From: a plasmid | DNA length: 64,000 bases | Strand: one strand, 5' to 3' | Sequence record: NZ_CP024444.1 | Shown here: positions 12,383 to 19,993 of the stretch, in pieces | Layout: the number at the start of each line of letters is the position of its first letter | Numbering within the stretch: the stretch's first letter is position 1 | The notes under the pieces: generated by a model | What the model was told of the DNA's origin: nothing | The model's database searches: none | Seen by the model: only the letters and a program-made list of their open reading frames with translations | Position numbers and translations under genes: made by a program

Positions 12383-14011
12383 TTATGCAAAGGCATCTAC
12401 AACGATTTTACTATCATCATTTTGTAGTGACAGATCATACTCATAACGTTCGTTTTGTTTATCGCTTAGTCGCTCAAGAATAATGTCTTTATCTGTGCCA
12501 GTCACATTTTTCAACTTTTCCCAAGCCTCGACTTCTTCTTCAGTGAATTTAAAATAGCGTACCTGTTCCACTAAACCATCATACGCAATGGTAAAAGACG
12601 GTTCATTCAGTAAGCTATCCAAGGTTTTTTCCATTAAAAAGTGTGAACTGGCACCTAAATTCTCACAATACCAACTCGGACGCCCAACATTTTGAACCAT
12701 TGCCCACAATGTACGGTCATAAAACTTCATCCATTTTAAATGGCAAGGTGGCAACACGCCAATCTGACGGGCTTTTTCAAGACACGCAATAATGATGGTT
12801 CTTGTATAAGCATGTTTAGAGATAATTTTTTTGGCAAGTGGCCTTTCAATCCATGTCGCCAAGTCTGCCTTGTACTCTTCTAACTTATCAAAGTCTAAAA
12901 AGCCTCGGTCTTCATCATTGTCGCCAGTTTTTTTAGTTAAATCACGATATACCCAATTGAACATATAGTCCAAGCGTTCTTGTGATTTATTTTTAATCTC
13001 TTTAAATTCCTCGTCTGTTAACTCGGTATCTTCAGCGCAAGCACGGGGTAAGATGATCGTTAAAAGTATCAACTCAAGCGGCTCTATGTTATCAATGCCT
13101 GACCACGGCTCACCTAATTGTTTAATCATAACGCTATTGAAACGATCCGGGTCAATGATTGGCACCAAGTTGCTTTTGTCAGTTAAGTTCACATCCAATG
13201 TATCAATCGTTGGAGGCACAAAACGCTCATTAAACTTTTTACCATAATCATCAGGCGAAATCGTATTTGGTCGCAACATAAACCCACTAATTAGGTCGTT
13301 CTCAAAACAAAAACGCTTGGTGCCATCCATGATACGCAGTTGACCTTTATTAATAGGTAGTAAATTAGGGTTAACTAAATCCACTAAGCTTAAATGCGGA
13401 TATAAAGGTCTTTGTTCGCGGATAAAGCTTTCCATGTCATGTTTTTTGGTCATGGTATTATCCGGGTGCTTTTTGGCAACACGAGCCACGCCTGCGCCTG
13501 CGCTAAAAATAGCAGGCCAAATGATAATGATATTGGGTAAAAAACTCGCCACAAACGCTTTGATACTGCCGATTTGATCTAAATCGACCAGTGTTTTTTG
13601 ACAACTAAACAGTGCATCCAATCCATTGCTAGTTGGACCACAAAAATCTCTAATATTTTTGGTTAATAGGCTTTGCTCGGCTGGTGCAATCACTTCAGAA
13701 AACGCCAAAAAAAACCATAAACCAGCAAAGGTAAATCCCAAAAGGGCATTTTTCTTCTGCTGTGTATGTCTATAATAAGAGATTGCCGCAATAATAATAC
13801 CAATGCTTACGCAGACTTCAGCCCCACCATACATACCAAAATGGTTTTCACCATAATATACAGGCAAGGTAATCACACCATATACCCATTTAGCTATCAT
13901 TAATACAAATTTTTTGATGGTAAGCCATAAGGTATAAGCAAACATACTCATACCAGCGATCATCACTAGCGTTTCTAGCTCGTCTTGACTTCTACGATTA
14001 TTTTGAGTCAT
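12383..14011 (-). CDS. inner-membrane protein with N-terminal TM bundle and cytoplasmic C-terminal domain (possible DotM/TrbA-like T4BSS component)
   Basis: 542 aa. Four to five hydrophobic helices in the first roughly 190 aa, then a soluble domain. No Walker motif. Assignment rests on context. Confidence 0.45.
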   Translation of the reverse strand: MTQNNRRSQDELETLVMIAGMSMFAYTLWLTIKKFVLMIAKWVYGVITLPVYYGENHFGMYGGAEVCVSIGIIIAAISYYRHTQQKKNALLGFTFAGLWFFLAFSEVIAPAEQSLLTKNIRDFCGPTSNGLDALFSCQKTLVDLDQIGSIKAFVASFLPNIIIIWPAIFSAGAGVARVAKKHPDNTMTKKHDMESFIREQRPLYPHLSLVDLVNPNLLPINKGQLRIMDGTKRFCFENDLISGFMLRPNTISPDDYGKKFNERFVPPTIDTLDVNLTDKSNLVPIIDPDRFNSVMIKQLGEPWSGIDNIEPLELILLTIILPRACAEDTELTDEEFKEIKNKSQERLDYMFNWVYRDLTKKTGDNDEDRGFLDFDKLEEYKADLATWIERPLAKKIISKHAYTRTIIIACLEKARQIGVLPPCHLKWMKFYDRTLWAMVQNVGRPSWYCENLGASSHFLMEKTLDSLLNEPSFTIAYDGLVEQVRYFKFTEEEVEAWEKLKNVTGTDKDIILERLSDKQNERYEYDLSLQNDDSKIVVDAFA

Positions 14012-14027
14012 AGTTATCTCTTACATC

Positions 14028-18162: not shown

Positions 18163-19457
18163 TGGCCATGCGTCCTATTGTATTCATCAATTTCAGCTGG
18201 GGTCATGACATGAAGAGCTGGTTTAGAACTATTGGTGTAAGTGCTAACCGTTACGCCAGTATTGCCCGGCACCACTGCAACGGCAGCATTCCCTGGAACC
18301 ACTGTCGTTGTTGTTGTGCTTACAACAGCATTGGTAGCATTGGTAGCATTGGTGGTAGTTGCCGCAGTATTACTGATACTAACAGGTCGCTGCTCAATAG
18401 TGTATTTGGTTTCCAAAGGATTTGGTGTTGTTACAATACCAGTGTTATTCAACCAAGGTTGTGCGCCATTTGCTTTTAAGTCATTATTGCGTACATTTTG
18501 CATATACTTCATTAGTGCTGGCGAAAAGGTTTCCTCGATTGGGGTTTGTGATACCACGCCTGATTTCCCATCATTTTTTAACGTCACAGCACCCAAGCCA
18601 ACATATTTAGAATTGTTGTATCTAGGCTTAAACGGTTGCGTGATGAATGATGGTAACACTTCGATTTGCAATAACTGTTCATCAATTCTTAAGCGATCAC
18701 CGTCATTATTGTCATACAGATTATAGCTGTTAATAACAGGCGAGTTAATTTTGCCGTCTAACACAAACTCATGGAAACGTATCATCCCAATATAGTCACG
18801 GTTAAGGCGATCCATAGCCTGTTGTAAAATACCATTAGCTTGAGCCAATCCTAAACGCCAACCCTCTTTGGTTGCATCCTCCCATAATTTACGCTCATGA
18901 CTTGTTTTTGGATAAATCTCTTTGCTCACGAATGCATAATCAGGAAATGCATTAGACTCATAGCTAAAGTTTAAGTAATCACGCCAGTTTGGTGCTGTGG
19001 TGGAAAAACGTGCCTGTTTAACAATATTATAAATTGCGCGTGAAAGGCGAATTTGCATGTGATTGTCTTGGTTATACAGATTGCGTGCTTCAGTGATAAC
19101 AGGAGGGACGACACGCTGTTGTATCATTAAGGGTTGGAAATTATATATGGCATCTAAATTTCGAGAGTTTGTTTGTACTGCCCATTGTATTTGTTTAAAA
19201 CGCATGCTCATGGCTGCACGAATAGCAGTCATTTTTGCATATTCCATCATGGCTTTATCACGCTCGGTACTTGCCATATCAATCATGGCATTTGTTGCAC
19301 CGCCACGGACTAACTGTTTTTGATAGCTTAAAAAATCTTCTGCATTAGTGATGTTTTCAGGGCTACCAGCGGCATGACTAGCCGCTGACAAACTTGTCAA
19401 AATCACACCAAATAATGCAGCTACTCTTTTGGATGAATTACCCATGGTTTGCCTCAT
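18159..19457 (-). CDS. secreted (periplasmic) protein with Thr/Asn/Val-rich C-terminus; occupies the DotC/TraI position
   Basis: Sec signal peptide (ASHA|AG cleavage site) with no lipobox. 432 aa. Translationally coupled to both neighbours. Confidence 0.45.
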   Translation of the reverse strand: MRQTMGNSSKRVAALFGVILTSLSAASHAAGSPENITNAEDFLSYQKQLVRGGATNAMIDMASTERDKAMMEYAKMTAIRAAMSMRFKQIQWAVQTNSRNLDAIYNFQPLMIQQRVVPPVITEARNLYNQDNHMQIRLSRAIYNIVKQARFSTTAPNWRDYLNFSYESNAFPDYAFVSKEIYPKTSHERKLWEDATKEGWRLGLAQANGILQQAMDRLNRDYIGMIRFHEFVLDGKINSPVINSYNLYDNNDGDRLRIDEQLLQIEVLPSFITQPFKPRYNNSKYVGLGAVTLKNDGKSGVVSQTPIEETFSPALMKYMQNVRNNDLKANGAQPWLNNTGIVTTPNPLETKYTIEQRPVSISNTAATTTNATNATNAVVSTTTTTVVPGNAAVAVVPGNTGVTVSTYTNSSKPALHVMTPAEIDEYNRTHGQ

Positions 19458-19993
19458 TATCTGTAAATAAGTGTGATTACTTTATTGTTTTTATCTAAGC
19501 TGATAGTCGCTTCATTCCCTAATTGCGCTGAAATTACCATGACAGCATTTTCGGGCGTAGTCCAGTTATTTGTAAAATTAACCGTACCTAAATCTCTTGA
19601 CTGACCAACTTCTAAGAAACGGTAGCCATATCGAATAGCGATAGAAGTTAATAAAGGTTGTGGCTTACCAATATAGTCAATAGCTACTTGGTCTTCTTCA
19701 AAACTACGTTGACGTGATTCTAGCGTTGCTGAATATTGTTGACGGTACTTGACGAGCATCTTTTGAGCTTCAAGTGCGCGTTGGCTTTCTTGAGAGATAA
19801 TTTCTAAAGCGTTTTCAGTTTGGGGATAAACACCGCTTTTAGAAAATAAGATGCCGTTGCTAGTTGCATTCGGTGTTGATGTATAATTATGTCCACTCCA
19901 ACCAAGTTGCGTACAACCTGTAGCAGATAAGATGGCACCACAAAACAAAAGACTTGCTAAAGTCTTGTTAACTTTTTCGCTATAACTTTTCAT
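19457..19993 (-). CDS. lipoprotein, DotD/TraH-like
   Basis: Lipobox LSATGC at aa 24-29. 178 aa, close to DotD (163 aa). Order lipoprotein / periplasmic protein / DotB-like ATPase mirrors dotDCB and traHIJ. Confidence 0.5.
   Translation of the reverse strand: MKSYSEKVNKTLASLLFCGAILSATGCTQLGWSGHNYTSTPNATSNGILFSKSGVYPQTENALEIISQESQRALEAQKMLVKYRQQYSATLESRQRSFEEDQVAIDYIGKPQPLLTSIAIRYGYRFLEVGQSRDLGTVNFTNNWTTPENAVMVISAQLGNEATISLDKNNKVITLIYR

Follow-up and report, generated by a model that had tools for sequence, protein, structure and literature searches.

A divergent type IVB secretion operon with a ParM-like gene on a large Moraxella osloensis plasmid

Introduction

The type IVB secretion system (T4BSS) operon described here lies on the minus strand, at 19993-12383, of a 64,000-nucleotide stretch of plasmid DNA (sequence record NZ_CP024444.1; hereafter the window), and its closest described relatives are encoded by Acinetobacter mega-plasmids, also from the Moraxellaceae, with mating-pair formation machinery of the I type (MPF_I): the pA297-3 group, pAC1633-1/pAC1530 and the pALWED1.1 group. 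This plasmid family has already been described (PMC7885321, PMC8490738), and pA297-3 is reported to conjugate at 7.2e-2 per donor (PMC7885321, PMC8490738). No relaxase was identifiable in the conjugative pA297-3 and pALWED1.1 groups, for which a new relaxase family was proposed (PMC8490738). In the IncI1 plasmid R64, the counterparts of DotM, the coupling protein, DotA and DotO are TrbA, TrbC, TraY and TraU, respectively (PMC8125031). The yT4BSS of Yersinia pVM82 and the kib system of Pseudomonas putida belong to the same broad clade, neither of them with a recognisable relaxase.

The gene order of the Moraxella operon is identical to that of the Acinetobacter plasmids (DotD/TraH-TraI-TraJ-IcmT-ParM/StbA-X-TrbA; in pA297-3 itself DotD-TraI-TraJ-(84 aa)-ParM-X-TrbA), which also have topA in their backbone. 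R64 presents the same traH-traI-traJ-traK order, and the Legionella map matches in its dotD-dotC-dotB order, with dotA close by. Our literature searches found no paper on a T4BSS of M. osloensis or on a linkage between ParM and T4BSS genes, and the 2019 GenBank record of the related M. osloensis plasmid pMOXF1 labels its transfer genes as 'hypothetical protein'. Automated resources already name several of the proteins, as DotB and IcmP (JGI) or as DotM_C, ParM/StbA and DotD/TraH (RefSeq or UniRef).

A seven-gene T4BSS operon

Seven tightly packed open reading frames (ORFs) of 178, 432, 439, 90, 359, 450 and 542 aa occupy the minus strand from 19993 to 12383, in the order DotD/TraH, DotC/TraI, DotB/TraJ, IcmT/TraK, ParM-type ATPase, X450 and DotM/TrbA, and we regard it as practically certain that they constitute a T4BSS operon of the Dot/Icm-like, IncI-like, MPF_I kind. 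Base 19457 is common to dotD and dotC, dotC and dotB overlap by 4 nt, and the other gaps measure 16-65 nt, junctions that would be consistent with translational coupling. A hairpin resembling an intrinsic terminator (12332..12360, minus strand; 12 pairs and then a run of T) is found 23 nt past the dotM stop, and from the close packing and this terminator we conclude that the seven genes form one operon.

The first gene, dotD/traH (19457..19993), encodes a 178-aa outer-membrane lipoprotein with the lipobox LSATGC at residues 22-27 (Cys27); it matched Pfam PF16816 at 29.1 bits, against a cut-off of 27, and NF033882 DotD weakly, and its orthologues head the cluster in all the related loci. It is followed by dotC/traI (18159..19457), whose 432-aa product is an exported core-complex protein (PF16932 T4SS_TraI, E 1.2e-48, 165.6 bits) with an N-terminal hydrophobic signal segment and a C-terminal extension rich in Thr, Val and Ala; JGI names its homologues DotC.

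The dotB/traJ gene (16843..18162) encodes a 439-aa hexameric-type ATPase of the PilT/VirB11 superfamily, recognised by profile matches, PDB matches and motifs: Walker A GSTGSGKTT (201-209), Asp box IVTHEEPIE (229-237), Walker B ALVLVGELR (277-285) and His box TGHPVFATTH (299-308). Among the NCBIfam models, TIGR02524 DotB scored highest (198 bits), ahead of TraJ (177) and PilT (168); among the PDB sequences, DotB structures 6gef and 6geb reached 231 and 180 bits, as against at most 116 for PilT and PilU. Since DotB models and structures outscore those of PilT and PilU, the ATPase belongs to the DotB branch rather than to type IV pili or type II secretion. JGI names this exact sequence DotB, and the best-scoring structure, 6gef, is, we believe, a Yersinia protein. 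All the scores of this DotB-type ATPase were below the NCBIfam equivalog cut-offs, so that it counts as a divergent member of its family. The M. osloensis system as a whole is considered a divergent but ordinary member of the known T4BSS family.

The 90-aa product of icmT/traK (16542..16814) begins MANEHWSQF and has two transmembrane segments by hydropathy. Alone it matched NF038220 IcmT_TraK weakly (E 1.3e-3, under the cut-off); aligned with 11 positional orthologues, all 12 members matched the IcmT/TraK family (best E 1e-15), and the HWS motif was invariant. The last gene, dotM/icmP/trbA (12383..14011), encodes a membrane protein of the coupling complex (542 aa), with transmembrane segments at its N-terminus and a DotM_C domain in the cytoplasm (PF23127, E 3.8e-32, 112 bits against a cut-off of 27; NF033890 DotM_IcmP, E 2.4e-27), 29% identical to pA297-3 TrbA over 91% of its length.

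These results agree closely with the sequence-only reading, which had proposed three coupled genes for a lipoprotein, a signal-peptide protein and an ATPase in the dotDCB/traHIJK order: coordinates, overlaps, lipobox and the four ATPase boxes were as described, and the profile searches referred neither the ATPase to a pilus or type II secretion system nor the lipoprotein to an unrelated family. Its IcmT-like protein with the HW motif was recovered, the downstream actin-fold ATPase (15397-16476) and the protein with a low-complexity C-terminal half (14028-15380) are both present, and its DotM/TrbA guess for the multi-transmembrane protein is supported by the DotM_C match.

The roles of the Dot products are known for their families and are here extended to the Moraxella proteins. 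The DotD lipoprotein and DotC would contribute to the assembly of the outer-membrane core complex, DotB would dock as a PilT-like hexameric ATPase at the cytoplasmic face of the machine, IcmT would be a small inner-membrane component, and DotM would be a membrane subunit of the DotL/TrbC coupling complex, which takes in substrates.

Carrier plasmid and extent of the transfer system

The window is colinear with the M. osloensis plasmid pMOXF1 (CP040258.1, 248 kb), at 97-99.8% identity, except that it is without one copy of IS256 and one IS5-adhP unit and has an extra 18.3-kb block bounded by insertion sequences (IS). The exact DotB, ParM and DotM sequences of the window are on record from M. 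osloensis, and the 90%-identity clusters of these products (the three tested) comprise 25-51 sequences, the named members being nearly all M. osloensis. The carrier of the operon is thus a large M. osloensis plasmid closely related to pMOXF1, which also carries msr(E) and mph(E). NCBI also lists partial, near-identical copies of DotB, ParM and DotM from Mycobacterium tuberculosis and Pasteurella multocida. Their contigs measure 253-542 bp, and the simplest explanation is that M. osloensis DNA contaminated the assemblies in question.

One further T4BSS gene lies within the window. The dotA/traY gene (2788..5883, plus strand), convergent with the dotD-dotM operon, encodes a polytopic protein of 1031 aa that matched TIGR04346 DotA_TraY at 189.9 bits (cut-off 100, E 8e-56), is 35% identical to pA297-3 TraY, and is rich in Gly and Ala over its last ~230 residues (55 G, 45 A). 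It would be a polytopic inner-membrane component of the machine; the sequence-only reading had left it between DotA/TraY and TrbL, and it was the former that stood. The remaining parts were found elsewhere on pMOXF1, so that the T4BSS gene set, most of which lies outside the window, is essentially complete: pMOXF1 encodes DotG, DotH, DotI, DotO/TraU-like, TrbC/DotL, DotN-like, TraW-like and primase-like proteins.

The TrbC/DotL coupling protein of pMOXF1 (95293-98238) has as its best model NF041447, 'F-type conjugative transfer protein TrbC' (E 1.6e-88), together with TraG-D_C and TrwB_AAD_bind matches. Its neighbour at 92071-95280 is a DotO/TraU-like, putative VirB4-class ATPase of 1069 aa, 33% identical over 97% of its length to pA297-3 TraU, with weak profile matches to TraC-F-type, and to DUF87 and Pox_A32 among its alignment members. 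DotG-like (E 2e-12), DotH (E 1.5e-50) and DotI (E 3.5e-23) proteins were detected in profile searches and placed by homology to the annotated pA297-3 genes. The profile scan revealed in addition DsbC-like, M23 peptidase and nuclease domains, and the comparison with pA297-3 added the DotN-like, TraW-like and SLT proteins. An 884-aa 'hypothetical protein' of pMOXF1 (129768-132422), with a TOPRIM-like segment (EGLTSAAAF ... ATDNDL) shared with the pA297-3 gene formerly called traC, is, judged by this segment, probably a conjugative primase.

A type IA DNA topoisomerase of 889 aa (topA; 9537..12206, minus strand) forms a separate transcription unit beyond the operon terminator. It matched Topoisom_bac (E 1.3e-97) and Toprim in Pfam and TIGR01051 at 418 bits, and it has the Toprim Glu (E11), DPDREGE (85-91), the motif GHITYMRTDS with the catalytic Tyr and, at the C-terminus, four zinc ribbons; beside the operon, it would act in DNA processing. 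The 'traB' of pA297-3 in the literature (753 aa) is probably the DNA topoisomerase of the same length in the pA297-3 annotation.

Comparison with the closest systems and across loci

The backbone shared with pA297-3 includes DotI, DotH, DotG, DotN-like, TraU, TrbC, TraW-like, TraY, M23 peptidase, SLT and primase-like proteins, at 23-42% identity. The two differ in that topA directly follows dotM and dotA is convergent in Moraxella, an arrangement of the Moraxella-type lineage unlike that of pA297-3; in that X has 450 aa as against 249 aa; and in that the genes flanking Moraxella dotA have no counterparts in pA297-3. In common with IncI1 R64, pMOXF1 has a nuclease and a DsbC/TrbB-like protein. 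The NikAB relaxase and the IncI oriT nick sequence of R64 were, however, not found in the searches of the window and pMOXF1, the Moraxella operon is without the thin-pilus pil operon after traK, its dotM is in one operon with traHIJK, and the ParM/X module and topA are additions.

The Dot/Icm systems of Legionella and Coxiella have homologues in the window of DotA, DotB, DotC, DotD, IcmT and DotM, and on the plasmid of DotG, DotH, DotI, DotL, DotN and DotO. They differ in that the Dot/Icm equivalog models score well under their cut-offs, that no homologues of IcmS, IcmW, IcmR or IcmQ were detected in the Moraxella system, and that this system is plasmid-borne in a host that is not intracellular. 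In Legionella, icmS, icmR and icmQ are situated between icmT and dotM, where the Moraxella operon has ParM and X. The Yersinia plasmid has the order DotD-DotC-DotB ... ParM ... DotM ... DotA, and DotB 6gef outscored Legionella DotB against the Moraxella ATPase; the ~19-kb Yersinia stretch had no annotated topA, and no array of genes for ArdC and SSB (the protein that binds single-stranded DNA) was seen in it.

A genome scan with the DotC alignment returned 18 loci. The dotD-dotC-dotB-icmT-...-dotM order was observed in Moraxella, Zoogloea, Massilia, Rhodanobacter, Halothiobacillaceae, Azoarcus and the P. putida group, and partly in Neisseria. The position of topA after dotM is kept within the Moraxella-type lineage (loci L007, L008, L025-L029 and L036), and convergent DotA homologues are kept in L027-L029 and L036.

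Three more distantly related loci, from a JGI metagenome (3300032753, L031), Cupriavidus p1 (L042) and Achromobacter pA82 (L043), had type IVb thin-pilus genes after dotD-dotC-dotB-icmT, an arrangement that resembles R64. In the metagenomic locus these were TcpQ, a secretin, PilO, a second T2SSE ATPase and a T2SSF protein, with ParM after icmT; in the two others a TcpQ gene alone was present within the stretch shown, with ParM before dotD.

A ParM-like ATPase and its putative partner within the operon

The fifth gene (15397..16476, minus strand) encodes a ParM/Alp-type actin-like ATPase of 359 aa, with Pfam matches to MreB-like_C, ParM_N, ALP_N and Alp7A_like_C and a PDB sequence match to R1 ParM (E 1.6e-7). 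Its AlphaFold model (predicted local distance difference test score, pLDDT, 89.4; predicted template modelling score, pTM, 0.87) had R1 ParM, pCBH ParM and Alp7A as top fold matches, the first 11 PDB matches being all ParMs or Alp7A (E down to 3.5e-19). The motifs DDGHSSIK (10), DIGGRTVD (203) and GGGA (313) are intact, and the nucleotide-binding motifs were invariant in an alignment of 23 sequences. A PilM/GspL-like docking role found no support, the fold matches being all ParM, Alp or MreB, with none named PilM, GspL or FtsA among the top 50.

The sixth gene (14028..15380, minus strand) encodes X450, in which a low-complexity linker joins a helical N-terminal region (~250 aa) to a conserved C-terminal tail ending in ...LF. 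No match to it was found in Pfam, NCBIfam or the PDB sequences, nor did a profile of 12 positional orthologues match the PDB. Word-indexed searches and a full HMMER search of 1.84 billion representative sequences yielded, besides near-identical copies (one of them truncated, at 98% identity), three remote relatives and no others; L025 (E 3e-14) and L026 (E 9e-6) have positional orthologues. The single-sequence AlphaFold model was unusable (pLDDT 35.5). X evolves very fast, yet the helical N-terminal region, the disordered linker and the ...LF tail are kept, and the near-terminal Phe is invariant in the alignment of positional orthologues. According to the title of PDB 4a62, it is by its C-terminal end that ParR binds ParM, and by its ParR-like layout X would be an adaptor partner of the ParM-like protein. 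The two genes appear to form an actin-type module that travels with dotD-dotC-dotB and that would serve plasmid segregation or the coupling of plasmid and machine.

ParM homologues occur on roughly 350 plasmids. The linkage was sampled in 15 non-M. osloensis loci with such a homologue, in all of which the ParM-like gene lay within ~2.6 kb of the dotD-dotC-dotB cluster. Seven of these homologues (24-47% identity) were looked up individually: all seven directly followed icmT, six were followed by X and dotM, and in five topA and a convergent gene of ~1120 aa came next, the latter matching DotA in four of the five. The same slot is occupied by ParM on plasmids of M. bovis, A. baumannii (pAC1633-1, pA297-3), A. 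indicus and P. savastanoi. Two inserted genes separate dotB and ParM in Y. pseudotuberculosis, in the P. putida-group loci dotD-dotC-dotB-dotM are present and ParM is absent, and in the Cupriavidus and Achromobacter plasmids ParM and a small gene stand just before dotD, from which we conclude that ParM and its partner move as a unit. The ParM-slot genes of M. caviae (L007, 12727-13770) and Moraxella sp. ZJ142 (L008, 12736-13923) align with the actin-like family and have degenerate phosphate-binding and adenosine motifs; their product, judged by these motifs, may be a retained pseudo-ATPase.

A 40-bp tandem unit, TTACGCTCAAACCCATTTTTATACGTTATTTGCCATTTTC, is repeated 16.1 times (96% match; two ~20-bp half-units) at 38615..39259, with no strand assigned, between the dotD operon and a long gene array described below. 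In pMOXF1 there are ~11 copies, and the repeats end ~480 bp upstream of the dotD start. They are candidate protein-binding iterons, whether of a centromere, an operator or an oriT-associated site. M. caviae, Moraxella sp. ZJ142 and metagenomic relatives also have iterated repeats of 20-22 bp upstream of dotD (listed for L007, L008, L011, L025 and L026); overall, 5-7 of 16 ParM-containing loci had such tandem repeats, as against none of three without ParM, a difference that is suggestive only.

One account of this module, that ParM and X, perhaps with the upstream repeats, are an ordinary type II, ParMRC-like segregation cassette lying in or near the operon and taking no part in secretion, has in our estimation somewhat less than an even chance. 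It accords with the fold and motifs of the protein, which are those of segregation ParMs, with the partitioning label given by annotators, with the layout of X (N-terminal domain, disordered linker, short conserved C-terminal tail), with the iterons upstream, with the displacement of the pair to the front of dotD in Cupriavidus and Achromobacter, and with the carriers, which are all large, presumably low-copy plasmids. The ParMRC system of R1 likewise combines a ParM fold and ATP-binding motifs, a downstream partner with a short conserved C-terminal tail, and repeats upstream of the transcription unit; it differs in its low identity (~20%), in its short ParR, unrelated in sequence to the 450-aa partner, and in that four T4BSS genes stand between the repeats and parM in Moraxella. 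Against an ordinary cassette, ParA/ParB are already present on pMOXF1, pA297-3 and pAC1633-1; the tight linkage holds at 24-47% identity and over two proteobacterial classes; the ParM-like gene also occurs on contigs without obvious plasmid markers; ParM and X are as closely packed as the rest of the operon; the gene is retained in M. caviae and Moraxella sp. ZJ142 despite its degenerate motifs; and R1 ParM/ParR is reported to stimulate conjugation (PMC4949242).

The linkage, the co-resident ParA/ParB, the retained degenerate copies and the report on R1 would favour a second reading, with the module as a functional accessory of the T4BSS. A bolder proposal, to which we assign a low probability, sees in ParM, X with its ...LF tail and the 20/40-bp iterons upstream of dotD a dedicated cytomotive module belonging to this T4BSS clade rather than a passenger segregation cassette. 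If that were true, an actin-like filament would bring the plasmid or its relaxosome to DotL-DotM, or would position the machine. In a still more remote variant, the type IA topoisomerase, always co-resident, would supply the nicking and the 5'-phosphotyrosyl chemistry in the MPF_I plasmids without a relaxase.

Conjugation or protein delivery

The machine's job is probably, by analogy with pA297-3, plasmid conjugation, in which it would form mating pairs and transfer single-stranded DNA, and the plasmid would then be self-transmissible. The backbone is homologous throughout to that of conjugative pA297-3, with the same operon including ParM, and several hallmarks of DNA transfer are present: an intact type IA topoisomerase, the TOPRIM primase-like protein, ArdC (ArdcN and MPTase-PolyVal) and SSB. 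DpnD/PcfM and KfrB domains occur among the other pMOXF1 proteins scanned, mostly further genes of the array. The long ArdC/SSB gene array would be the early-entering 'leading' region.

A number of observations weigh against conjugation. Of the three things that the sequence-only reading had suggested looking for in the flanking sequence, the coupling protein was found on pMOXF1, whereas a relaxase and an oriT were not. No relaxase family was detected among ~140 pMOXF1 proteins in family scans; a search for the HxD/E...HxH three-histidine motif in pMOXF1, the window and pA297-3 gave one implausible match, in a 221-aa protein; and the IncP/IncI nick motif YATCCTGY was no commoner than chance and was confined to genes, which left the searches without an oriT. 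MOB-suite classes pMOXF1 as non-mobilizable, the pA297-3 relatives pAC1633-1, pD4 and pD46-4 gave no laboratory transfer (PMC7885321), and the 18.3-kb insertion 213 bp upstream of dotD may alter operon expression. Moreover, DotO/VirB4, the coupling protein and DotG, DotH and DotI lie beyond the window and were seen solely on the near-identical pMOXF1. Two characterised systems of the same clade and with the same layout of genes are not conjugative: that of Yersinia pVM82, a plasmid without relaxase or oriT, is reported to contribute to virulence (10.1101/2024.06.14.598817), and the P. putida kib T4BSS kills bacteria (PMC9519443).

Two further searches were also negative: the first protein of the dotI-H-G cluster, which is conserved, cytosolic and 551 aa long, matched no relaxase in a PDB search, and no convincing inverted repeats were seen beside the 40-bp array or dotD. 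The missing recognisable relaxase is nevertheless weak evidence, because the conjugative pA297-3 and pALWED1.1 groups are reported likewise without one. PLSDB/MOB-suite lists pA297-3 as MOBP and conjugative, a label that conflicts with the statement in the literature that it has no relaxase.

That the T4BSS mainly delivers proteins rather than the plasmid, either toxins to rival bacteria as in kib or effectors to host cells as proposed for pVM82, is the less probable alternative; substrates or adaptors would then be found among the numerous small genes upstream and the cytosolic proteins near dotA. Yersinia p_153kb/pVM82, typed as MPF_I and non-mobilizable, has the same layout, its authors having found no relaxase or oriT, and the chromosomal loci of the P. 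putida group share dotD-dotC-dotB-dotM with the killing system kib. The negative relaxase and oriT searches on pMOXF1 and the window point the same way, as do the effector-like domains of pMOXF1 (pentapeptide repeats, Fic, HEAT, prokaryotic E2 and MORN, mostly in the regulated array) and the cytosolic, partly low-complexity proteins around dotA. Against this alternative stands the homology of the backbone to pA297-3/pALWED1.1-type plasmids, which are conjugative despite no reported relaxase, together with the topoisomerase, primase-like protein, ArdC and SSB, which lack an obvious role in protein-only secretion; nor was an adaptor of the IcmS/IcmW type detected in the family and PDB searches. 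The two functions are compatible and not mutually exclusive.

It is very improbable that the genes are a decaying, non-functional remnant of a transfer system. The non-mobilizable class of pMOXF1, the IS elements and the 18.3-kb insertion in and around the region, and the failure of several related Acinetobacter plasmids to transfer could be read in that way, but the seven operon ORFs, dotA and topA are all full length with intact catalytic motifs and near-identical in the window and pMOXF1, and the rest of the gene set is on pMOXF1. The weakest explanation, by which the ATPase and the genes around it would be those of a type IV pilus or of type II secretion, can be dismissed almost entirely, since the PilT match comes from the same superfamily and is exceeded by the DotB and TraJ models, the neighbours are DotD, DotC, IcmT, DotM and DotA, and no pilin, secretin, PilC or GspF genes were found within the window.

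Gene array and insertion upstream of the operon

A long array of mostly monocistronic minus-strand genes extends over 39731-64000 of the window (203.8-246.3 kb in pMOXF1), with one and the same cassette of ~150 bp before each gene. The cassette contains the terminator of the previous gene, a motif (CTATATCAAGYTATCRCTAATRCAA), an element (AAAACGGTTTTACCGTTCGTCGGAAAA) and a sigma-70-like promoter (TTGATT-17-TATTAT) with a copy of a near-palindrome (ACGGTTAAACCG) on either side, after which comes a conserved 5' leader (CATGGAAACGAGATAGGCTCG...AAAGGA). The operator pattern was counted 42 times in the window, always within 40120-63706, and 73 times in pMOXF1, 68 of them within 203847-246277. Among the products are ArdC, SSB, four pentapeptide-repeat proteins and a helix-turn-helix regulator; Fic, HEAT, prokaryotic E2 and DpnD/PcfM domains were seen in further pMOXF1 proteins, mostly from array genes beyond the window. 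The array has the appearance of a co-regulated unit of very large size, a leading-region or anti-defence regulon oriented towards the dotD operon. A resemblance of its intergenic cassettes to the Frpo-type single-strand promoter hairpins of the F plasmid was unsupported (z ~-2, mostly from the terminator).

The 18.3-kb insertion relative to pMOXF1 (20207-38544) lies between the operon and the repeat array. It contains an IS982 transposase (20297-21178), an IS5-type element (29903-30895), an IS3-type element (35721-37030) and a second 293-aa ORF (37529-38410). An ALIL frameshift pseudoknot was found in the IS3-type element (36639-36755), and nothing else in the Rfam scan. As cargo the insertion carries a UvrA paralogue (21189-23846), an NDH-2-like oxidoreductase, DUF3422, glutamate-cysteine ligase, a ZIP transporter and cytochrome bd subunit II, as well as formaldehyde-detoxification genes for an esterase, GFA and a zinc alcohol dehydrogenase.

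Genes flanking dotA

Three packed genes (135..2637, plus strand) stand just upstream of dotA and encode the partly low-complexity proteins w156, w148 and w519 (156, 148 and 519 aa), with no signal peptides or transmembrane segments. Between dotA and topA, w515 (6072..7619, plus strand) encodes a conserved cytosolic protein with homologues in the same place in L025 (E 4e-31) and L026. Pfam, NCBIfam and PDB searches of these four and of w96 gave nothing significant, and an IcmW/IcmS-like role for w148 was unsupported by them. A TnpB of the IS200/IS605 family (372 aa, 7764-8882) lies between the dotA-side genes and topA, and two diverged copies of it are present elsewhere on pMOXF1 (80-82% nucleotide identity).

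Significance

Mega-plasmids with the I-type machinery of Acinetobacter resistance plasmids are thus carried by M. osloensis, which is common on skin and in the environment, and the Acinetobacter mega-plasmids with this machinery spread carbapenem and other resistance genes. Because the Moraxella backbone proteins are so far diverged from those of pA297-3, the system is a useful distant comparator. The relaxase and oriT of the pA297-3-type plasmid group are an already acknowledged open question, and the search for them is narrowed, since only about a dozen backbone proteins other than T4BSS components are shared between the Moraxella plasmid and pA297-3. Finally, the constant linkage of ParM to dotD-dotC-dotB suggests a testable tie between plasmid positioning and type IV secretion.

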